From Escherichia phage vB_EcoS_AKFV33: DNA of 64,000 nt. The notes below the pieces were generated by a model. The model was not told where the DNA came from. It searched no databases and was given only the letters and a program-made list of their open reading frames with translations. Positions 34,721-45,718 of this stretch are shown here, in pieces. The DNA lies in sequence record NC_017969.1. One strand, written 5' to 3'. The translations under genes and the position numbers were made by a program. Positions within the stretch are counted from its first letter, which is position 1. Every line of letters begins with the position of its first letter.

Positions 34721-34757
34721 AAGGGGAGGGGGCTATGCTCCTTCCCCTTTTTGCATT
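34721..34757 (+). terminator. rho-independent terminator
   Basis: AAGGGGAGG-loop-CCTTCCCCTT then TTTTGCATTT. Confidence 0.55.
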
Positions 34758-34785
34758 TAGAAGGCACGAAAGCGTGCAAAGGAGA

Positions 34786-36258
34786 ATGACCTTGTTTAAC
34801 GTGCAAGCTGTAGTGTTGAAGATGCTTCTAGCTTCCGAACAGAAGCAAATAGCATTGGAAACATTCTCAAAACTGCATAAAGATCATTTTAATGACGCTT
34901 TCTCCTCAATTTACCAAGCCGTCCAGAATTATTATAAAAAATATAACACAATGCCGTCCATTGACGCACTTATGCTTGAAGCTAATAGGAACGCCCGCCT
35001 TTCTCAAGCTCTAGTCGTCTTAGCTAACACTCAAATTCCAGAAGTGAGCATGGAACAGGCACTTGAAGTCCTAGAGGCTGAATATACACAGGATTTATTC
35101 CTGAAGCTTCTAGAAACAGACGTGCTTCAAGATTTAACAATGCTGGATCAGGGAGAAATTCTCAACCGAGTTGCCTCCCTTCACTTAAAATTAGAAGAGA
35201 AAGTAACGAATACTGGAAAAGTATTCAACGCAGATAACATGCGTATTTTCCAGAGAGAAGAAGATACCAAACTGAACTTAATCGCTCTTGGTATTTGTAA
35301 TGAGTTCGACGCTCAAATTGGTTTAGCTCGCACAGAAACGTTACTGCTTGGTGGTTGGCGTGGTACTGGTAAATCCATTATCTGTTCAAACATACAGGTT
35401 CAGCAATATTTGAATGGAGATATTGCTCCATACTTCTCAATTGAGATGAAAGAACATGAAGTATTTAGACGTAATCTAGCCATGTTAGCCGGGGTATCAG
35501 CACTAGCAATGCGTAATAATACTCTAGAAGGTGCAGCTCTATTGAGATTAGCCAGAACTAGAGCTAGAATGTTTAATGGGGGTGAAGAGCTTTTTGATAA
35601 CTTCGTTAAACAGTACACAATGGCTAAGATGAGTGATTTCTACGATATGGAGAGTAAGCTAATAGAGGGATATGAACTACATACTCCTATGATTATCGTT
35701 TATGACCCTGAACTGTCCATTACAACAGTTGACGTAGAATTAAATAAATTAGTTGCTAGATATGGTGATAAAGTTACAGTAGCTTTACTGGACTATATTA
35801 ACCAAACCCGACTTCCAGATTCTAAAACCATTGATATGTATGACTGGAAAGAACAGATGGTTGTTAGCTCGTCTTTCAAATCTATCTGCCAGAAACATAA
35901 CGTGGCTGGTGTAGCTCCTTACCAGATCGATCAAGATGGTAGAACACGTATGTCAAAGGGTATTCTTGATTCCGCAGACATGGCTGCTAATCTTAATGCT
36001 GCAAAAGCTGATAATGGTCAAGGTGCTATTATGTTTGACTTCGTTAAGACTCGTTCTTCTGATAGCGTGAAGTTTATGCCTAAAATGAACTGGGAAACCT
36101 TGCGGATGGATAACACTACCAACCTAGCGATGGAAGATATATCTCAAATGGAAGCTGAGTTCGTTATCCCTATTGAGAAGGATAAGCCGGCTCAACCTAA
36201 ACGTGCTAAGAAAGACAAAACCGAAAATTCAACAGGTGAACAGGCCAGCGATATATGA
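34786..36258 (+). CDS. replicative helicase, DnaB/RecA-like ATPase domain
   Basis: Walker A GGWRGTGKS; start moved to ATG after AAGGAG because upstream codons are the terminator hairpin. Confidence 0.7.
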   Translation: MTLFNVQAVVLKMLLASEQKQIALETFSKLHKDHFNDAFSSIYQAVQNYYKKYNTMPSIDALMLEANRNARLSQALVVLANTQIPEVSMEQALEVLEAEYTQDLFLKLLETDVLQDLTMLDQGEILNRVASLHLKLEEKVTNTGKVFNADNMRIFQREEDTKLNLIALGICNEFDAQIGLARTETLLLGGWRGTGKSIICSNIQVQQYLNGDIAPYFSIEMKEHEVFRRNLAMLAGVSALAMRNNTLEGAALLRLARTRARMFNGGEELFDNFVKQYTMAKMSDFYDMESKLIEGYELHTPMIIVYDPELSITTVDVELNKLVARYGDKVTVALLDYINQTRLPDSKTIDMYDWKEQMVVSSSFKSICQKHNVAGVAPYQIDQDGRTRMSKGILDSADMAANLNAAKADNGQGAIMFDFVKTRSSDSVKFMPKMNWETLRMDNTTNLAMEDISQMEAEFVIPIEKDKPAQPKRAKKDKTENSTGEQASDI

Positions 36259-37145
36259 GTAGAATAACAGAACTACTTGATCTGAAAGGCATTGAATATA
36301 AAGACACAGGTGGGGACATCCTCATCTGTTGTCTCAATCCAGATCATGACGATAAACACCCAAGTTTGCGTATTGATCCTGAAACAGGTATTATGCACTG
36401 CTTGAGTTGTGGCTTCGGTAAAGGTATACCGAGCATTTACCATTATTTTAATGAGACTCAGTACCGACAGTCTCCAAGACTATCGCAGGTACGTAAAAAG
36501 ATTTCAGAGATTAGGAATGGATCTACAAATCTTGCAATTCCTGAATCTGCTTACCTTTTCGAAGGTGATTTCCGAGGTATAAGTTCTAAGACCTTGAAGA
36601 AATATTTTGCTTTCCAACACCAAGCAGACTGGGAAGGCAGAATTGTATTCCCAATCACAGATGCTGTTGGACGCAATATCCTATTTTTGGGTCGTTCTAT
36701 AAACAGTTCTGCCCCTCCTAAATACTTAGTAAAACCAAAACAAGTTTCACCACCGATTTTCCCTGTACGATATAATACTCCAGTTCTTATTCTAGTTGAA
36801 GGTATCTTTGATATGCTGAACCTAGAGGATAATGGTATAGACTATGCTTCTTGCTGCTTTGGTACACATCAGTTTACTTCAGATAACATTGCAGATAAGT
36901 TTAGCCCTTATATTATTGCTGGTGTTAAAGTTGTTGTTATCTTACTAGATAATGATGCTTCTGGTAATAAAGCTGCACAAGCACTGGCTAAGCTAATTCG
37001 TACAAAAACGCGTTTAACACCTGTAGTTGCTAACTTTCTTCTACCTGAAGGTAAAGACCCAGGTGACTTAAATAAAGAAGAAATTGATATGTTAGCAAAA
37101 CGTATTGAAATTTTAGTTGCTGAATCGCTTAAAGATTTGGTATAA
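36255..37145 (+). CDS. DNA primase, DnaG-like
   Basis: zinc finger CCLNPDHDDKHPS...HCLSCGFG and Toprim VVILLDNDASGNKAA. Confidence 0.8.
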   Translation: MSRITELLDLKGIEYKDTGGDILICCLNPDHDDKHPSLRIDPETGIMHCLSCGFGKGIPSIYHYFNETQYRQSPRLSQVRKKISEIRNGSTNLAIPESAYLFEGDFRGISSKTLKKYFAFQHQADWEGRIVFPITDAVGRNILFLGRSINSSAPPKYLVKPKQVSPPIFPVRYNTPVLILVEGIFDMLNLEDNGIDYASCCFGTHQFTSDNIADKFSPYIIAGVKVVVILLDNDASGNKAAQALAKLIRTKTRLTPVVANFLLPEGKDPGDLNKEEIDMLAKRIEILVAESLKDLV

Positions 37146-37207
37146 TATATTGGTAAGTTAGAGAAGAAACACTGAAGTTATACTTACTTACCAAGAGGAG
37201 ATTAAAT

Positions 37208-39775
37208 TTGAAAATCGCAGTAGTTGATAAAGCCCTAAACAACACTCGTTACGATAAACATTTCCAGCTATACGGCGAGGAAGTTGATGTATTTCATATG
37301 TGTAACGAGAAGTTATCTGGTCGTTTGCTTAAAAAGCACATTACTATTGGAACACCAGAAAACCCATTTGATCCGAATGATTATGATTTTGTTATACTAG
37401 TAGGTGCCGAACCTTTCCTGTATTTCGCAGGTAAGAAAGGCATTGGTGACTATACTGGTAAACGTGTAGAATATAATGGATACGCTAACTGGATTGCGAG
37501 TATTAGCCCAGCCCAGTTACACTTTAAACCTGAAATGAAACCAGTTTTCGATGCAACAGTAGAGAATATCCACGATATTATCAATGGTCGTGAGAAGATT
37601 GCAAAAGCTGGTGATTACCGTCCTATTACTGACCCTGATGAGGCAGAAGAATATATCAAGATGGTGTATAATATGGTTATCGGACCTGTCGCATTCGACT
37701 CCGAAACCTCAGCACTATACTGTCGAGATGGTTATCTGCTTGGTGTTTCTATGTCTCACCAAGAGTATCAGGGTGTATATATCGATTCTGATTGTCTCAC
37801 AGAGGTTGCAGTATATTATCTCCAGAAAATTCTGGATAGTGAAAACCATACTATTGTTTTTCACAACTTGAAGTTTGATATGCACTTTTATAAGTACCAT
37901 CTGGGACTTACTTTTGATAAAGCGCATAAAGAACGCAGGCTTCATGATACCATGTTGCAACACTATGTTCTAGATGAACGTCGTGGTACTCATGGCTTGA
38001 AATCTCTAGCAATGAAGTATACCGATATGGGTGACTATGACTTTGAACTAGATAAGTTCAAGGAGGATTACTGCAAAGCACATAAAATCAAGAAAGAAGA
38101 TTTCACCTATGATTTAATTCCGTTTGATATTATGTGGCCTTACGCTGCGAAAGATACTGATGCCACCCTACGTTTGCACAACTTCTTCTTACCAAAAATT
38201 GAGAAGAATGAAAAACTTTGTAGTCTGTATTATGATGTCCTAATGCCTGGTTGTGTATTTCTCCAGCGTGTTGAGGATCGTGGTGTACCTATTTCTATTG
38301 ATCGTTTAAAAGAAGCTCAGTACCAGTTAACCCATAATCTGAATAAAGCTCGTGAAAAACTGTATACTTATCCAGAAGTCGTTCAGCTAGAGAAAGATCA
38401 GAACGAAGCGTTTAACCCAAACTCTGTTAAACAACTCCGTGTTCTTCTGTTTGATTATGTTGGCTTAACTCCAACAGGTAAATTGACGGATACTGGAGCA
38501 GATTCTACGGATGCAGAAGCTCTGAACGAACTGGCTACGCAGCATCCAATTGCTAAGACTCTACTAGAGATTCGTAAGCTGACTAAGCTGATCTCTACTT
38601 ATGTTGAGAAGATTCTTCTGAGTATTGATGCAGATGGTTGCATTCGTACTGGTTTCCACGAACATATGACTACTTCTGGTCGTCTGAGTTCTTCTGGTAA
38701 ACTGAACTTGCAACAGCTACCTCGTGATGAATCTATTATCAAGGGTTGTGTAGTAGCTCCTCCTGGGTATCGTGTAATCGCATGGGACTTAACAACTGCG
38801 GAAGTTTATTATGCTGCTGTTCTATCTGGTGATAGAAATATGCAACAGGTATTTATCAACATGAGAAATGAACCTGATAAATACCCGGACTTCCACTCTA
38901 ACATCGCACACATGGTATTTAAGCTCCAATGCGAACCCCGTGATGTTAAAAAGCTGTTCCCAGCTTTGCGTCAAGCAGCTAAAGCAATCACCTTTGGTAT
39001 TCTGTATGGTTCTGGCCCAGCTAAAGTAGCTCATTCTGTTAACGAAGCTCTTCTGGAACAGGCTGCTAAGACAGGAGAACCGTTTGTTGAATGTACTGTT
39101 GCGGATGCGAAGGACTATATTGAAACTTACTTCGGTCAGTTCCCGCAGCTTAAGCGTTGGATTGATAAGTGCCACGATCAGATCAAGAATCATGGATTTA
39201 TCTATAGTCACTTTGGTCGTAAACGTCGTCTGCATAATATCCATTCCGAAGACCGTGGTGTTCAGGGTGAAGAAATTCGTTCTGGATTTAACGCAATCAT
39301 TCAGTCTGCTTCTTCTGATAGTCTCCTTTTAGGTGCTGTAGATGCAGATAATGAGATCATTTCTCTTGGCCTAGAACAAGAGATGAAGATTGTTATGCTG
39401 GTTCATGACTCCGTAGTTGCTATTGTTCGTGAGGATTTGATCGACCAATACAATGAAATCCTGATTCGTAATATTCAGAAAGACCGTGGTATCAGTATTC
39501 CTGGCTGTCCGATTGGTATTGATTCAGATTCTGAAGCTGGAGGTTCTCGTGACTATTCTTGTGGTAAGATGAAGAAACAGCATCCATCAATCGCTTGTAT
39601 TGATGATGATGAATATACTCGTTATGTCAAGAGTGTATTACTTGATGCAGAGTTCGAGTATAAGAAACTAGCTGCAATGGATAAAGAGCATCCAGATCAT
39701 AGCAAATACAAGGATGATAAGTTTATTGCTGTATGTAAAGATTTGGATAACGTGAGAAGGATTCTCGGTGCTTGA
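37208..39775 (+). CDS. family A DNA polymerase with 3'-5' exonuclease domain
   Basis: exo motifs FDSETSALY and YAAKDTDATL; motif B QAAKAITFGILYGSG; motif C VHDSVV; TTG start after AGGAG. Confidence 0.9.
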   Translation: MKIAVVDKALNNTRYDKHFQLYGEEVDVFHMCNEKLSGRLLKKHITIGTPENPFDPNDYDFVILVGAEPFLYFAGKKGIGDYTGKRVEYNGYANWIASISPAQLHFKPEMKPVFDATVENIHDIINGREKIAKAGDYRPITDPDEAEEYIKMVYNMVIGPVAFDSETSALYCRDGYLLGVSMSHQEYQGVYIDSDCLTEVAVYYLQKILDSENHTIVFHNLKFDMHFYKYHLGLTFDKAHKERRLHDTMLQHYVLDERRGTHGLKSLAMKYTDMGDYDFELDKFKEDYCKAHKIKKEDFTYDLIPFDIMWPYAAKDTDATLRLHNFFLPKIEKNEKLCSLYYDVLMPGCVFLQRVEDRGVPISIDRLKEAQYQLTHNLNKAREKLYTYPEVVQLEKDQNEAFNPNSVKQLRVLLFDYVGLTPTGKLTDTGADSTDAEALNELATQHPIAKTLLEIRKLTKLISTYVEKILLSIDADGCIRTGFHEHMTTSGRLSSSGKLNLQQLPRDESIIKGCVVAPPGYRVIAWDLTTAEVYYAAVLSGDRNMQQVFINMRNEPDKYPDFHSNIAHMVFKLQCEPRDVKKLFPALRQAAKAITFGILYGSGPAKVAHSVNEALLEQAAKTGEPFVECTVADAKDYIETYFGQFPQLKRWIDKCHDQIKNHGFIYSHFGRKRRLHNIHSEDRGVQGEEIRSGFNAIIQSASSDSLLLGAVDADNEIISLGLEQEMKIVMLVHDSVVAIVREDLIDQYNEILIRNIQKDRGISIPGCPIGIDSDSEAGGSRDYSCGKMKKQHPSIACIDDDEYTRYVKSVLLDAEFEYKKLAAMDKEHPDHSKYKDDKFIAVCKDLDNVRRILGA

Positions 39776-40265
39776 TTTCAAATTGCCCGTATATGCTTTA
39801 CGGGCTTTTGTATCAATTGAGCAAGAAGGTGATTATTCCGTAATTACAACAAGATATAATAAATATGTGCTAGATAACAGGAAGTTGCCTGGCACTTTTT
39901 CTCAACGTAGGCTTATTCTATTTGAGAAACGGAAAGAATTACCATATAAGCTCTATCCTATTAGGGGTAGAATATCAATGTTGTCTCAATTAGTTGGGTC
40001 AAAGCGTAGCCAATTTATAGATTCTGATGGAAATCTTATTAACTGGAAGAAAACTACATTTTATGATGTTGTCACCTCTAAAGTTTTGCATTCAGCTAGA
40101 ATTTATAACGGAAAATACCAATGCTATGTAGCTAAAGTTCCATATCCATTTGTATTATCCTATGTTCCAGCTTATATAAGCTATATTCTGGTAAATAATA
40201 GCCCTGTTATTTACCAAGTCCATCAAGAGGAGCCTGAAATTCCTAGACTTAGAATAAAATTATGA
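39768..40265 (+). CDS. hypothetical protein (165 aa), AT-rich ORFan
   Basis: GTG start overlapping polymerase stop. Confidence 0.4.
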   Translation: MLDFKLPVYALRAFVSIEQEGDYSVITTRYNKYVLDNRKLPGTFSQRRLILFEKRKELPYKLYPIRGRISMLSQLVGSKRSQFIDSDGNLINWKKTTFYDVVTSKVLHSARIYNGKYQCYVAKVPYPFVLSYVPAYISYILVNNSPVIYQVHQEEPEIPRLRIKL

Positions 40266-41614
40266 AGGTTGTTATATCTAATAAAGCCTATTTCAAGCCC
40301 GATGATGAACTTTGGGATTATTGTAGTAAGCAAACCACTTATCACATTGAGACAATGACTAGTAAATACCCTATTATGTATAAGAATAGTGGTGTTGTTG
40401 CTAAAGAGATTAAGTGGATTCCTATCACGCGTCTGGATTTACTAGATGCTAAAGGAGTAAAATACGAATTAGTCGATAAACGCACATTAGCTCCGGTAGA
40501 TATACCAAAACCTAAGTTCAAGCTGCGCGAAGAAGATCAGCTTCCAATATACGAAGAATGCGATGATACCTGTATTATTAATGGTAAGCCTGGATTTGGT
40601 AAAACTATCCTAGCCCTTGCACTTGCGTATAAATTTGGCCAGAAAACTTTGGTAATTTGTACCAACACATCTATTCGTGAAATGTGGGCGGCAGAAGTTC
40701 GTAAATGGTTTGGGTTTGAACCAGGTATCATAGGTTCTGGGAAATACAATATTGATCCACCAATTGTGGTCAGTAATATTCAAACAGTGAATAAACATGC
40801 GAATAATCTTTCTAAAGTATTCGGTACTGTTATAGTTGATGAAGTTCACCATTGTGTGGCTACAACTTTCACTAACTTCCTAGAAATATCATGTGCTCGC
40901 TATAAGATCGGACTATCTGGAACATTAAAACGGAAAGATGGTCTACAAGTCATGTTCAAAGATTTCTTTGGATATAAGATCTTTAGCCCACCGGTTAATA
41001 ATACTATTGCTCCTACAATCCATAGGTACTCCGTGCCTGTTGAGCTATCAGGAAACCAAAACGTACCGTGGGCATTACGTGCTAATGATGTGTATAATCA
41101 TCCTGAATATAGGGAGACTATTATAAATCTAGCACATTTATATGTGAATATGGGGCATAAAGTACTCATTGTAAGTGACAGAACAGAGTTAATCCAAACA
41201 GTACTAGAAGCTCTTGCACAGCGTGGTGTTACAACATATGAAATTATAGGGGCAACTCACTTAGATGACCGATTAAAAATTCAGGAAGATATAGCAAAAG
41301 GTGGACCTTGTGTACTTGCAGCCGCTCAAAGTATCTTCTCTGAGGGTATTTCCCTTAATGAATTATCTTGCTTAATAATGGGCAGTCTCATTAATAATGA
41401 GTCTCTCATTGAACAGCTCGCAGGCCGTGTTCAACGTATTGTCGATGGTAAACTAGACCCTATTGTTGTGGATCTAATTATGAAAGGCGGCACTGGACTA
41501 AGACAGGCTTCTGGACGTATGGCAGTATATCGTAACAACGGGTGGAAAACTATTACCATGACTCCTGAGAAAGCAGTTCAATTAGCTAAAATTGCATTTG
41601 GCAACAGCTCATAA
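40262..41614 (+). CDS. SF2 ATP-dependent DNA helicase
   Basis: Walker A GKPGFGKT, DEVHH box. Confidence 0.8.
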   Translation: MKVVISNKAYFKPDDELWDYCSKQTTYHIETMTSKYPIMYKNSGVVAKEIKWIPITRLDLLDAKGVKYELVDKRTLAPVDIPKPKFKLREEDQLPIYEECDDTCIINGKPGFGKTILALALAYKFGQKTLVICTNTSIREMWAAEVRKWFGFEPGIIGSGKYNIDPPIVVSNIQTVNKHANNLSKVFGTVIVDEVHHCVATTFTNFLEISCARYKIGLSGTLKRKDGLQVMFKDFFGYKIFSPPVNNTIAPTIHRYSVPVELSGNQNVPWALRANDVYNHPEYRETIINLAHLYVNMGHKVLIVSDRTELIQTVLEALAQRGVTTYEIIGATHLDDRLKIQEDIAKGGPCVLAAAQSIFSEGISLNELSCLIMGSLINNESLIEQLAGRVQRIVDGKLDPIVVDLIMKGGTGLRQASGRMAVYRNNGWKTITMTPEKAVQLAKIAFGNSS

Positions 41615-41626
41615 ATGATGTATAAT
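41598..41626 (+). promoter_or_regulatory. early promoter (TTGGCA-17-TATAAT) overlapping helicase 3' end
   Basis: motif plus ATACATAAATTTGAGAGAG leader. Confidence 0.45.
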
Positions 41627-41697
41627 ATATACATAAATTTGAGAGAGAAAGTTTCGGATTGATAAGAAAGTCCGAAGCAGAAAAATAAAAATTTTAG

Positions 41698-41727
41698 TTG
41701 CTAAATTCTCTCGAAATCTAGTATAAT
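41698..41727 (+). promoter_or_regulatory. early promoter (TTGCTA-18-TATAAT), tandem to previous
   Basis: motif plus ATACATAAATTCGAGGAG leader. Confidence 0.5.
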
Positions 41728-41834
41728 ATATACATAAATTCGAGGAGAAAATAAAAATTAAATTCTTCGATTATGAAAAGCTATACTTACTAGCTAGAGG
41801 AAATTCCGACCTAATTATTAAGCTATTCAAAAGA

Positions 41835-42119
41835 ATGCTTACAGAGCCTGATGCTCACCAATTATTGGTCGGTTCCTCATTCATTTTGAATGAATCAACA
41901 ATAGTTGATAATCCAAATAAATTGTCTAACAGACAACTGGCAGAATATCTAGGAATTTTAAGTCTACGAAATTATGCCGAATACAAGTTTACAAACGATC
42001 CTAGTTTGGACATACAATATGTTCCAGTATGGATACCACGTTTAGTAATCGACACTAACCCACTAATCGCAATTAACAAATCAAAATTAATCTTTAAAGA
42101 GGAAATAAAATATGGCTAA
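41835..42119 (+). CDS. hypothetical protein (94 aa)
   Basis: ORF track; overlaps RBS of next gene. Confidence 0.3.
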   Translation: MLTEPDAHQLLVGSSFILNESTIVDNPNKLSNRQLAEYLGILSLRNYAEYKFTNDPSLDIQYVPVWIPRLVIDTNPLIAINKSKLIFKEEIKYG

Positions 42120-42885
42120 GTCTTGGGGCGAAACTACTGGCGGTTCTAACGATAAAATCGAATTCCTGAAGTTCAACAACGGTATCACTCGTGTTCGTAT
42201 CGTTTCTGGTGTTCTTCCACGTTATGTCTATTGGCTGACTAATAAAGAGGGTAACGTAGCTCCTTTCGAATGTCTCCGTTTTAACCGTGACAAAGAGAGC
42301 TTTGTTCGTGGTAAAGCTGACCCGGTTCATGAGATGGGCTTCTTTGAGAAAGAGCTGGATAAAGATGGTAATCGTGTTCCCCTGAAACCGAAGAAAAACT
42401 ATATCGCTTTTGTTATCGACCGTTCTGATAACAAACTGAAAGTAATGGAAGTCAAGGCTACTATTCTGAAGGGCATCCAGTCTATCATGAAGCAGCTGAG
42501 CCTGGCAACTCCGTTTGATATTGATATTTCTATCGAGAAAAAAGGTAAAGGTTTCGATACTGAGTATGATGTACAGCAGATTGCTGCTATGCAGTTCCAG
42601 ATTAAGCTGCAAGATCCTAACAGTGCAGAATCTAAGCAATATGCTGCGGATGTCGATCTGATCGGTGAAGCTATGTGTGATAAAGATGGCGACATCATTA
42701 AGTTCGAAAAAGTTCCTTCTCTGGAACAAACCTATCCGGTTCCTACCTATGAAGAGCAGAAAGAAGCAATTCTAGCCTTCATGGAGGGTCGCGAGAATAA
42801 AGATGATGATGCCAAATCTGGTAATAGCAATGCAGGTTCCCAGAAAGGTATTGACTCAGAAGCTGCAAGCGATCTGGACGACTAA
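42112..42885 (+). CDS. putative ssDNA-binding protein with acidic C-terminal tail
   Basis: tail ...SEAASDLDD as in phage SSBs; host-like codon usage; AAAGAGGAA RBS. Confidence 0.45.
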   Translation: MAKSWGETTGGSNDKIEFLKFNNGITRVRIVSGVLPRYVYWLTNKEGNVAPFECLRFNRDKESFVRGKADPVHEMGFFEKELDKDGNRVPLKPKKNYIAFVIDRSDNKLKVMEVKATILKGIQSIMKQLSLATPFDIDISIEKKGKGFDTEYDVQQIAAMQFQIKLQDPNSAESKQYAADVDLIGEAMCDKDGDIIKFEKVPSLEQTYPVPTYEEQKEAILAFMEGRENKDDDAKSGNSNAGSQKGIDSEAASDLDD

Positions 42886-42892
42886 TAAATAG

Positions 42893-42918
42893 AGGGGCTT
42901 CGGCCCCTTTCTTTTTAA
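42893..42918 (+). terminator. rho-independent terminator
   Basis: AGGGGC-TTCG-GCCCCT then TTCTTTTT. Confidence 0.6.
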
Positions 42919-42921
42919 CCA

Positions 42922-43899
42922 ATGAGAATATTATTTAGTGCTGATCATCATATCAAACTAGGACAAGATAAAATTCCAAAGGAATGGCAGAAGCGTCGCT
43001 TCCTGATGCTAGGAGAACGGTTAAATGATATATTCCATAATCATAACTGTGATCTTCATATTGCTGGTGGTGATATACTTGATGTTGCCGACCCGTCGTC
43101 AGAAGAAATAGAACTGCTTGAACAGTTCATGTCAAGACTTGACCATCCAGGCAAAATCTTTACTGGAAATCATGAAATGTTAACGAAAACCATTTCATGC
43201 CTATATCATTATGCAGGAGTTATTAATAAAGTAACGAGTGGGAAGTGGGAGGTAGTTACCAAACCATATCGTTCCCCTGAATTTGATATTGTTCCGTATG
43301 ATGAAATCCATAAGTCTAAGTGGAAACCATCTGAATCAAAACTATGTTTCACGCATGTTCGTGGTGAAATCCCTCCACATGTAAAACCAGAAATTGATCT
43401 AACTAAGTACAACTGTTATGATACTGTAATTGCTGGCGATTTACACTCTTATACTAATAGCCAGACTATCGGATCTACCAGACTCCTCTACCCAGGGTCT
43501 CCATTAACTACATCGTTCCATAGAGAACGCACAAAAGGTACAAATGGTTGCTTTATCGTTGATACCGACACATTAAAAGTAGAATGGATTGAACTAGGTG
43601 ATTTACCACAACTGATTCGTAAAACAATCGGAGTTGGTGAAGAGATGGAACCTAGTGATTATGATCGTGTAGTCTATGAAGTTACTGGTGACGTTGTTCA
43701 ATTAAAGTCTATCAAAGACTCTGATTTATTAGATAAGAAGATTAACCATCGAGTTACTAAAGACGCTAAGTTAAATCTTGTTGATCTTGATATGTTAGGT
43801 GAACTTGAACTTTACTTCCGTGAAGTTGAGAAGCTATCTCAAGGCGACATTGATAGAATCTTGGCTAGAGCTGCGAAATATGTCAAAGATTACAATTAA
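42922..43899 (+). CDS. SbcD/Mre11-like nuclease
   Basis: DHH, GGDILD and GNHE phosphoesterase motifs. Confidence 0.8.
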   Translation: MRILFSADHHIKLGQDKIPKEWQKRRFLMLGERLNDIFHNHNCDLHIAGGDILDVADPSSEEIELLEQFMSRLDHPGKIFTGNHEMLTKTISCLYHYAGVINKVTSGKWEVVTKPYRSPEFDIVPYDEIHKSKWKPSESKLCFTHVRGEIPPHVKPEIDLTKYNCYDTVIAGDLHSYTNSQTIGSTRLLYPGSPLTTSFHRERTKGTNGCFIVDTDTLKVEWIELGDLPQLIRKTIGVGEEMEPSDYDRVVYEVTGDVVQLKSIKDSDLLDKKINHRVTKDAKLNLVDLDMLGELELYFREVEKLSQGDIDRILARAAKYVKDYN

Positions 43900-45718
43900 G
43901 ACACTAAAATTTAGTAACGTTATGTCTTACGGTAAGGACATCGTAATCCATTTCGATAAGAATCCAGTTACTCAACTAATTGGGGGCAATGGGCTAGGGA
44001 AATCCACCATTGCTACTGTTATTGAAGAACTCTTTTATAATAAGAACTCACGCGGTATTAAGAAAGATGCTCTGTTCTCTTGGTCTTCCCCGAAAAAAGA
44101 GTATGATATGCACGCTTACTTCTCGAAAGATGAAGATGAGTACGAACTGCATAAAGTAGTTAAATCAACTGCTAAAGTAACTCTTATTAAGAATGGAGAA
44201 GATATTAGTGGACACACGGCAACTCAAACATACAAGATGATTGAAGAGATTATGGGTGGTGACTTCCAAACATTCACCAAACTGATTTATCAATCAGTGG
44301 GTTCCAATCTAGACTTTCTAAAAGCAACAGATGCAACACGTAAGGCTTTTCTTGTTAACTTGTTCAATCAAGAACAGTATAAAGAAATGTCAGAAACTAT
44401 TAAGGCTGACCGTAAAGAAATAGCAAATACCTTAAATAATTTGCAGGGCCAAATGGCTGTAATTACGAAAATCCTTAATGGAAAGAATAATCTGGGAACT
44501 TTGCAGGAACCTGTAGAAGTACCAGAGTTTGATGAAGAGCCATTAGCACAAGAACTTACTGAATCGAAAATTAAGGCGGCATTAGCCAAGTCTCAAGAGG
44601 CTAATATTACTAAATTGCGTAATTTGGACAAAGCTGTACAAGTTGCCGAACAATCTTTCGAGCCTTTCAAAAATTTACCCGCGCCCACTGACCAAAATGA
44701 AGAGATCTCGAGTGTTACGCGTGACCTAACGATTGTGACCTCACGTGCGAGCGAAGTTAAGAAACGTTATCAGAAGTTCAAGCAAGAGGCTTCAAATACT
44801 GAATGTCCTACCTGTGGTACTCATCTGGATACAACTGCTGCGCAAAAAGCAATGGATATGGCTAGAACAGAATATGATCCTCTGTTCAAAGAGAAGCAAT
44901 CTCTTGAAGCTAAGCTAGAACAGTTGAAGAAAGAACAACTTGAGTACGTTGCATATACTAGAGCAAAGGATGCTTTGGATAAGGCAGTAGCAGCTAGAGA
45001 CGAGTTCAAAAATTCAATGAGTGATGCTTCTTTTGAAGAACTCAATGTGCAAATCCTACAGGTGCAAATCCGACAATTAGAACAGGAAATAGCTGATGGA
45101 CGTTCTAAGGTTGCAATTGCTAAAGAACATAATGCAAATGTTGAGTTAGCCAATGCAAAATATAAGGCGAAACTAGAACAGATTGAGAAAGCTGAGGCAG
45201 AAATGTCTGAGATTACTTCCAAACTGGATGGAGTATCAGAAGCTGTTGCTGATCTCGATATTCTGATTGCTGCATTAAAGAATCTAGTAGGATATAAGCT
45301 AGAGCATAGTGTGAAAGTATTTGAAGAACTAATTAATAAATACCTTTCCATTATGACTGGTGGTAAGTTCGCACTTGGATTTGAGCTTGATGAAACAAAA
45401 TTACAAGTAGTAATCTTCAATGATGGAAATCGTACCAGTATGGAGAACTGCTCTACTGGTCAACAGAGTAGAATTAACCTAGCAACCCTGTTAGCTATTC
45501 GGATGCTGTTAACATCTATTAGTAAAGTTAATATTAATCTTCTATTCCTTGATGAAGTAATTAGCTTTATTGATACAAAAGGACTTGATACTCTTGTTGA
45601 ATTATTAAATGAGGAAGAAAGTCTAAATTCTATCATTGTTTCTCATGGGCATACGCATCCACTAGCTCATAAGATTACTGTCAAAAAAGATGCAGAAGGA
45701 TTTTCCTACTTAGAATAA
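43880..45718 (+). CDS. SbcC/Rad50-like ATPase
   Basis: Walker A GGNGLGKST, central CPTCG zinc hook, coiled coils, C-terminal LLFLDEV. Confidence 0.8.
   Translation: MSKITIKTLKFSNVMSYGKDIVIHFDKNPVTQLIGGNGLGKSTIATVIEELFYNKNSRGIKKDALFSWSSPKKEYDMHAYFSKDEDEYELHKVVKSTAKVTLIKNGEDISGHTATQTYKMIEEIMGGDFQTFTKLIYQSVGSNLDFLKATDATRKAFLVNLFNQEQYKEMSETIKADRKEIANTLNNLQGQMAVITKILNGKNNLGTLQEPVEVPEFDEEPLAQELTESKIKAALAKSQEANITKLRNLDKAVQVAEQSFEPFKNLPAPTDQNEEISSVTRDLTIVTSRASEVKKRYQKFKQEASNTECPTCGTHLDTTAAQKAMDMARTEYDPLFKEKQSLEAKLEQLKKEQLEYVAYTRAKDALDKAVAARDEFKNSMSDASFEELNVQILQVQIRQLEQEIADGRSKVAIAKEHNANVELANAKYKAKLEQIEKAEAEMSEITSKLDGVSEAVADLDILIAALKNLVGYKLEHSVKVFEELINKYLSIMTGGKFALGFELDETKLQVVIFNDGNRTSMENCSTGQQSRINLATLLAIRMLLTSISKVNINLLFLDEVISFIDTKGLDTLVELLNEEESLNSIIVSHGHTHPLAHKITVKKDAEGFSYLE

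Follow-up and report, generated by a model that had tools for sequence, protein, structure and literature searches.

We analysed a 64,000-nucleotide stretch of the genome of Escherichia phage vB_EcoS_AKFV33 (NC_017969.1; referred to below as the window), concentrating on its replication genes at positions 37,208 to 43,899 and on the start codons of two genes of that cluster, the T5.125-like gene between D10 and D11 and the DnaB-like helicase gene D6. Of the 461 phage records that a 7.1-kb query spanning the cluster matched, 433 extend over 80% or more of its length. T5-like phages (family Demerecviridae) make up nearly all of the matches, the best being Escherichia phage ECOP18 (98.0% identical). 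The region is 97-98% identical to Tequintavirus genomes (more than 190 genomes over 7.1 kb) with the same gene coordinates, and the order D6-pri-pol-T5.123-D10-T5.125-D11-D12-D13 is kept as in that genus; once a coordinate offset is applied, ECOP18, T5_ev212 and the T5 reference are annotated with one and the same map. Matches in Pfam, PHROG and NCBIfam agree with the gene names. For the polymerase, Pfam gives DNA_pol_A (223 bits) and DNA_pol_A_exo1 (136 bits; 3'-5' exonuclease); further along the block it gives ResIII (70 bits; SF2 helicase), Metallophos (29.5 bits; Mre11/SbcD-like) and AAA_23 (42 bits; Rad50/SbcC-like), and the single-strand DNA-binding protein D11 is assigned by phrog_1607. 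By sequence similarity, then, the window belongs to a T5-like phage and the region is its replication/recombination gene block. We consider it likely that this is the known T5 block, that the unusual starts listed in an earlier note on this DNA are genuine, and that two further starts, an ATT for T5.125 and a TTG for D6, have been mis-called.

In public annotations, the T5.125-like open reading frame (ORF) starts at ATG 41835, which has no Shine-Dalgarno (SD) sequence (ΔG -0.6). Upstream, the frame stays open as far as a stop at 41724, and neither ATG nor GTG nor TTG occurs in it between 41724 and 41835. It does contain an ATT (41757), 26 codons upstream of the annotated ATG and placed behind a GAGGAG. 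Orthologs are annotated longer: 363 nt in Shivani, STG2, vB_Kpn_3 and DU_PP_V (26 codons more than the 94-residue form) and 354 nt in Sealy and K7rec17 (23 codons more), against 285 nt in T5. On alignment, the ATG of these longer orthologs coincides exactly with the ATT found in both the window and T5, and the same codon is a canonical start in 14 other lineages, namely ATG or, in two of them, TTG. Among IMG/VR, metagenome and reference loci, it is ATT in 32/32 T5-type sequences and ATG in 8/8 Epseptimavirus-type ones; the metagenome scan itself returned 44 matches, only 7 of which are real T5-type loci. The T5-type initiation region is carried at 95% identity or more by 212 public phage records. 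An 83-nt query containing the ATT is found exactly in 167 of these 212, and the same query with ATG substituted is found exactly in none. Based on these features, the T5.125-like gene most likely initiates at ATT 41757, encodes 120 residues and has been called 26 residues short in the public annotations examined.

Gene callers accept only ATG, GTG and TTG and favour the longest ORF. Among the matches listed, the records annotate nothing, or only a promoter, over the ATT initiation region, and all three T5 GenBank records give 94 aa for T5.125. A collection of 15 billion proteins does not contain the T5-type protein in its 120-aa form, and for one T5-type genome the NCBI pipeline entry is a "partial" protein of 125 aa which runs upstream without a start. 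An ATT start of T5.125 was found neither in the annotations examined nor in the literature searched. When both strands of the window were scanned for ORFs of at least 60 codons with an SD and an ATT, ATA, ATC or CTG before the first canonical start, only T5.125 was credible. None of the 11 tRNAs in the window is relevant to reading AUU at initiation, and an Rfam search gave no RNA family match in the cluster. The ortholog of Proteus phage PM135 (L040 14744-14824) has an annotated length of 92 aa, counted from an internal ATG, and an in-frame upstream ATG (MIFFDYEK...) lies at the aligned position; as read from the alignment, this is a separate annotation truncation, in which a canonical codon is involved.

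We then considered whether the extension is translated. The 32 sequences of the ATT clade (28 haplotypes) vary at 10 sites in codons 2-26; 9 of these variants are synonymous and one replaces Asp by Asn. Read in the other two frames, these sites are synonymous in 4/10 and 0/10 cases. Nine or more synonymous sites out of 10 would be expected with a probability of 7e-6 if mutation were uniform, or of 0.0017 if it were restricted to transitions. The remainder of the gene varies 22:11 (synonymous:non-synonymous), so the extension is at least as constrained as the rest. In two sequences (L019 and L024), the A-run directly 5' of the ATT has gained or lost one base. Such changes would break any frame starting further upstream, indicating that the reading frame begins at the ATT. 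At the protein level, the 120 positions of phrog_4258 align to residues 1-120, and an N-terminal motif, M-xFFDYEK-x-Y-LL-x-G, is present in most of 18 homologs recovered by a search of 5.8 billion proteins. An AlphaFold model computed on the homolog alignment has a mean predicted local distance difference test score (pLDDT) of 93.8 and a predicted template modelling score of 0.88. Residues 1-29 are modelled as a strand and two helices (pLDDT 96-97), and are thus predicted to belong to the folded domain and not to a tail. From these sequence features, the ortholog alignment, the coding constraint and the fold prediction, we infer initiation at the AUU.

Two other readings of this locus have to be weighed. 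The public annotation would be right if translation started only at ATG 41835, the 78 nt upstream being an untranslated leader left after the ancestral ATG had mutated. The 94-aa form is annotated in all three T5 GenBank records and in some 100 members of the cluster, initiation is far more efficient at ATG than at ATT (PMC5499595), and ATG 41835 is kept in all 27 relatives. An untranslated leader would, however, have to vary 9:1 in favour of synonymous changes in the T5.125 frame only, and the strong SD stands at the ATT and not at the ATG. Residues 1-26 are moreover conserved across the family and modelled within one compact domain, while Met27, the first residue of the short form, is not conserved, the alignment having I, L, A and others at that position (also in L087/L088). 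We judge this reading quite unlikely. That T5.125 is a decaying pseudogene in the T5 lineage, with the change from ATG to ATT as the inactivating step, would fit the loss of a canonical start and the fact that neither structure nor family assigns a function to the protein; yet none of the 32 sequences has a disrupted 120-codon ORF, the synonymous excess extends over both the extension and the remainder, the SD has been strengthened and not lost, and the region is retained at 95% identity or more in the 212 genomes mentioned above. Decay appears very improbable. Some points do weigh against the ATT start and what we build on it. The selection test rests on 10 variant sites, a small number, from related genomes. 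ATG 41835 could additionally give rise to a 94-aa product. The full-length protein could be very scarce, because AUU is a poor initiator. No report of N-terminal protein sequence or ribosome footprints was found in the literature searched (T5 polymerase N-terminus, ATT starts, T5 ribosome profiling). Finally, the second ATT lineage described below is one assembled contig, in which an assembly error is possible, and the dosage-compensation rationale, i.e. low output in every lineage, is an interpretation only.

The initiation regions of T5.125 orthologs were compared across 16 lineages. The two strongest SDs are those of the two ATT lineages, the T5 type (-8.9 kcal/mol) and contig L086 (-8.7 kcal/mol), the 14 lineages with canonical starts ranging from -1.5 to -6.4. 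In L086, AAGGAG is followed after 7 nt by ATT at the same codon. The L086 protein is 56% identical to that of the window, and its nearest relatives (81% and 77% aa identity) start with TTG, while ATG behind GATGAGAGA is the start in the window protein's closest relatives (92% identity). By parsimony, a strong SD with ATT therefore appears to have been acquired twice independently. Scans of viral and genome collections gave no further copies of the L086-type lineage. In 9 of the 14 canonical-start lineages, the ATG or TTG lies 0-4 nt past a consensus TATAAT -10 box and there is no SD (start regions in L004, L039, L087, L088, L090-L093); these nine comprise all Klebsiella-phage lineages and six metagenomic lineages. 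As judged from the sequence, mRNA from such promoters would be leaderless or would start inside the ORF.

In E. coli, AUU is reported to initiate at about 1-2% of the AUG level, and initiation factor IF3 to discriminate against it (PMC5499595). In the mechanism we propose, the ancestral ATG would have changed to ATT while the SD was strengthened, and a near-perfect SD 9 nt upstream would place the initiator tRNA at the AUU. The weak start codon combined with the strong SD would keep T5.125 output low, as SD-less ATG or TTG starts would do elsewhere. A more speculative extension, which we consider possible but doubtful, is that AUU with a near-perfect SD is a convergently selected throttle that keeps the 120-aa protein scarce and its synthesis dependent on IF3 and tied to the translation state of the host, other lineages achieving the same via SD-less ATG or TTG starts abutting a -10 box; here efficiency, IF3 dependence and dosage are what we infer, and not what the alignments display. 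In both ATT lineages (window 41740-41775; L086 1408-1440), the minimum-energy fold pairs the SD with codons 3-5 (UUCUUC/UUCUUU) and leaves the AUU in a loop. An SD-sequestering hairpin is not claimed, as the energies are ordinary (z about -1.5 to -1.9). The two promoters upstream, P31A and P31B, share a repeated initial transcribed sequence, GTATAATATATACATAAATT(T/C)GAG(A/G)AGA (window 41615-41740), and a hairpin without a T-run lies between them at about 41652-41679.

The second start that differs from the public annotation is that of D6. The annotated ATG, at 34735, lies in the loop of the terminator hairpin that follows D5. Further downstream, a TTG at 34792 is preceded by AAGGAG (34779-34784) with a 7-nt spacer (SD ΔG -8.7). 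In Klebsiella, Proteus and Vibrio phages, D6 orthologs are preceded by a terminator, about 40 nt and an SD, and begin at an ATG with MYNVQA or MINVQA. In two close relatives (L015 and L030), an HNH endonuclease gene replaces the upstream sequence and D6 begins ATG TTT AAC GTG (MFNVQA). These M(F/Y/I)NVQA starts all align with TTG 34792, and position 10 of the DnaB profile aligns with residue 6 of the TTG-started protein. D6 thus probably starts at the TTG and not at the annotated ATG, as far as the sequence comparison goes. The alternatives are ATG 34735 itself, which gives the longest ORF, is annotated in nearly all public records and has an SD-like GGAGG 5 nt upstream, and ATG 34786, a canonical codon two codons before the TTG. 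The GGAGG tells against our preferred start, though it lies within the stem of the 13-bp terminator whose loop holds the ATG; so does the identity of 28 close relatives across 34735-34791, which leaves no selection test for this segment. ATG 34786, for its part, leaves a spacer of only 1 nt behind the SD. The codon aligned with the TTG is the start in five independent orthologs, two of them being near-identical D6 genes whose upstream 57 nt have been replaced by the HNH insertion, and the DnaB profile begins only a few residues into the TTG-started protein. An ATG start for D6 consequently seems unlikely to us, although less so than a 94-aa T5.125.

The starts named by the earlier note are those of the T5 reference, ECOP18 and T5_ev212 annotations, and they proved robust. 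The polymerase does begin at a TTG (37208) behind a ribosome-binding site, GAGGAG, 7 nt upstream; this TTG is unchanged in 27/27 IMG/VR relatives, and the codon aligned with it is ATG in Klebsiella phage GZ8 (MKIAVVDK), Proteus phage PM135 (MKIALVDK) and Vibrio phage Hades (MKVAVIDK). A tblastn search with polymerase residues 1-140 returned 907 records, and in nearly all of the matches listed the alignment begins at residue 1-2. Codons 2-30, which precede the first in-frame ATG, have 15 synonymous and 2 non-synonymous variants (2/15 and 1/16 in the other frames; P = 5e-9). The T5.123 GTG, at 39768, does overlap the polymerase stop as the note had said, the overlap being 8 nt long. This GTG is likewise unchanged in the 27 relatives and is aligned with GTG in Klebsiella phage GZ8 and ATG in a Vibrio phage, (M)LNF being conserved; codons 2-70 have 46 synonymous and 12 non-synonymous variants (P = 2e-19), and phrog_4386 matches residues 1-165. 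These comparisons indicate that both starts are genuine, and both are already in the T5 annotation; by alignment, each derives by a single base change from an ATG start seen in more distant relatives. For the SbcC-like D13, the ORF is open upstream to GTG 43799, and 43799-43879 varies 2:15 (synonymous:non-synonymous) in the D13 frame and 11:4 in the D12 frame. This segment is thus non-coding in the D13 frame, and ATG 43880 is the D13 start, not the upstream GTG. A terminator-like hairpin at 39785-39805 (GCCCGTA...TACGGGC then TTTTGT) lies just past the polymerase stop, inside T5.123 codons 6-13. It is absent from Klebsiella phage GZ8, where the peptide LPVYALRA is still conserved.

It could be argued that the true starts of polymerase and T5.123 are ATGs further downstream (37298, Met31, and 39978, Met71) and that TTG and GTG are artefacts of choosing the longest ORF. 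A downstream ATG was indeed used in the 1989 T5 polymerase record M24354 (L038; 829 aa, present length 855 aa), T5.123 is split in two PHROG families of 165 aa and 95 aa because of alternative start calls, so that the short form has a PHROG of its own, and the SD-like score at 39978 is -6.5. The M24354 start is, however, an out-of-frame ATG (equivalent to window 37287): the record has one extra A compared with later sequences, a one-base sequencing error which, with that ATG, accounts for its length. The synonymous excess 5' of both downstream ATGs also argues against such starts, and ortholog N-termini, which the earlier note had proposed to align, do not point to downstream ATGs, those of the outgroups being aligned with the TTG and GTG instead. 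We give downstream starts next to no credence. No solved T5 polymerase structure that could fix the N-terminus was found in the copy of the PDB searched. The note's remark that start calls here depend on annotation rules therefore holds for M24354, the T5.123 PHROGs, T5.125 and D6, but not for the four starts it had named, on which the T5 annotation, 27 relatives and the orthologs agree.

Table 1 Features of the D6-D13 block, in window coordinates.
Feature	Position	Strand	Details
Intrinsic-terminator hairpin after D5	34721-34749	+	13-bp stem, 8 G-C pairs, then T-run
D6 DnaB-like helicase, public annotation	34735-36258	+	ATG start
D6 DnaB-like replicative helicase, proposed coding sequence	34792-36258	+	TTG start (probable), 488 aa
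DNA primase	36255-37145	+	ATG start; overlaps D6 stop as ATGA 36255-36258
Shine-Dalgarno GAGGAG for polymerase	37195-37200	+	7-nt spacer to TTG 37208; ΔG -9.1
Family A DNA polymerase (T5 pol)	37208-39775	+	TTG start; 855 aa
T5.123-like ORF, function unassigned	39768-40265	+	GTG start; 165 aa
D10 helicase	40262-41614	+	ATG start in ATGA overlap; 450 aa
Tandem early promoters, T5 P31A equivalent	41598-41626	+	TTGGCA-17-TATAAT
D10/T5.125 intergenic stretch as annotated	41615-41834		220 nt; contains P31A-P31B promoter region
Tandem early promoters, T5 P31B equivalent	41698-41727	+	TTGCTA-18-TATAAT
Shine-Dalgarno GAGGAG for ATT 41757	41742-41747	+	9-nt spacer; ΔG -8.9
T5.125-like gene, proposed coding sequence	41757-42119	+	ATT start (most likely), 120 aa
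T5.125-like ORF, public annotation	41835-42119	+	ATG start; 94 aa
D11 single-strand DNA-binding protein	42112-42885	+	ATG start
Terminator-like hairpin between D11 and D12	42891-42910	+	
D12 SbcD-like nuclease subunit	42922-43899	+	ATG start; stop 43897-43899
D13 SbcC-like subunit	43880-45718	+	ATG start

The block would be transcribed rightward from strong early promoters, and many of its genes are joined by overlaps of 4, 8 or 20 nt that would couple their translation. The GTG of T5.123 overlaps the polymerase stop (TGA 39773-39775) in GTGCTTGA. The D10 ATG at 40262 overlaps the TGA of the T5.123-like ORF as ATGA, and a second 8-nt overlap, ATGGCTAA at 42112-42119, joins the T5.125-like ORF and D11, which the earlier note does not mention. 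The overlap of about 20 nt that it gave for the SbcC-like and SbcD-like genes (D13 and D12) is exactly 20 nt. The ATGA overlap of helicase and primase is real, at D6/primase, and the primase N-terminus there (MSRITELLDLK) is identical in Klebsiella phage GZ8; it lies, however, upstream of the range to which the note had assigned it, where the only ATGA is that of T5.123/D10. As background we took the 72 coding sequences of the curated T5 annotation (59 kb), with 64 ATG, 5 GTG and 3 TTG starts (8/72 non-ATG) and overlaps at 23/65 same-strand junctions (35%). Against it, neither the non-ATG starts of the region (2/7; hypergeometric P = 0.17) nor its overlapping junctions (4/6; P = 0.11) are enriched. 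The density that the note had seen is thus not above that of T5 at large: the cluster as annotated is typical of T5 in starts and overlaps, and what the note had found is the standard T5 annotation, known and ordinary. With both corrections, non-ATG starts amount to 4/9 genes of the D6-D13 block of the window (TTG, TTG, GTG, ATT); counted on the T5 annotation (10 genes) this gives P = 0.027, a nominally significant but post hoc value for which the background genes were not re-examined with equal care.

All four non-ATG starts (D6, polymerase, T5.123 and T5.125) have a good SD (ΔG -5.5 to -9.1), and two overlap genes with ATG have almost none of their own (D10, +0.2; D13, -2.1). Stop/start overlaps of 4, 8 or 20 nt, ATGA among them, are the usual arrangement for translational coupling, and the weak SDs at D10 and D13 are consistent with the signature expected of it. 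The ATG of D12 comes directly after the T-tract of the terminator (42910-42924) and has no recognisable SD (ΔG -1.7); taken at face value, this arrangement means that D12 expression must rely on terminator read-through and SD-independent initiation.

HNH homing-endonuclease genes sit at junctions of the cluster that vary from one relative to another. T5 has hegJ at D6/primase, Shivani has an HNH gene after D10, and L015 and L030 each have one ahead of D6. At all three junctions (including 36255-36258), the window has an empty site; its relatives' HNH genes include those at L003 3615-4148 and L005 271-603. The insertions at the D6 junctions (hegJ in T5; L015 and L030) keep flanking ATGA or TAATG stop/start overlaps. 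Outside the block, the tRNA region is mosaic with respect to T5 (window 3426-3502, 3432-3998 and about 4715-4754). The tRNA-Leu(UAA) of the window lies in a segment without a T5 match, where T5 has hegA, and the T5.077-T5.079 block is missing from the window. Two Rfam tRNA-like matches (4011-4085 and 6376-6447) were not called by ARAGORN.

If the ATT start is true, T5.125 is truncated by 26 residues in T5 and in about 200 deposited T5-type genomes, of which a sample was inspected. The missing residues are the predicted β-strand and two helices, and the truncated form has spread into protein databases; expressing it would, according to the model, probably give a misfolded fragment. D6, in turn, appears to carry a spurious 19-residue N-terminal extension in annotations. 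The T5.125 case exposes a systematic blind spot of gene callers, which consider ATG, GTG and TTG only. A conserved, possibly convergent AUU start in a classic model phage would join a very short list, and T5.125 would provide a simple natural system for studying start-codon/SD compensation and discrimination by IF3 during infection.

The closest known system is T5 itself (NC_005859 / AY543070). Its genes T5.119-T5.128 have the same order and, after the offset, the same start and stop coordinates; the polymerase TTG, the T5.123 GTG, the overlaps of 8, 4, 8 and 20 nt, P31A, P31B and the terminator after D11 are all as in the window. T5 differs in having hegJ, an HNH endonuclease gene, between D6 and primase, which the window lacks. 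The starts proposed here depart from the T5 annotation for T5.125 (ATT, 120 aa and not 94) and D6 (TTG, 488 aa in the window), and because the T5 sequence is identical at both sites, both corrections would apply to T5 as well. The Epseptimavirus ortholog (STG2 gp028, Eps7 AGC_0138), also of 120 aa, is 92% identical at the aa level, likewise lies between D10 and D11 and shares the promoter and leader backbone of the window, but its ATG stands behind a weak SD (GATGAGAGA, ΔG -2.9), whereas in the window an ATT stands behind GAGGAG (ΔG -8.9). With respect to coupled operons of phages and bacteria, the ATGA at D6/primase and T5.123/D10 and the 8-nt overlaps at pol/T5.123 and T5.125/D11 are the likeness; there is nothing unusual in the window, where coupling is predicted from the sequence. 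Lastly, only two E. coli genes start with AUU, infC, which encodes IF3, and pcnB; expression from such starts is low, and IF3, which is known to repress infC, rejects them (PMC5499595). T5.125 resembles them in that a near-cognate AUU is conserved across relatives and paired with an SD. It differs in that no autoregulatory logic is evident, since T5.125 is not a translation factor, and in that its AUU goes back to an ATG that sister lineages still have, and coincides with a strengthening of the SD.

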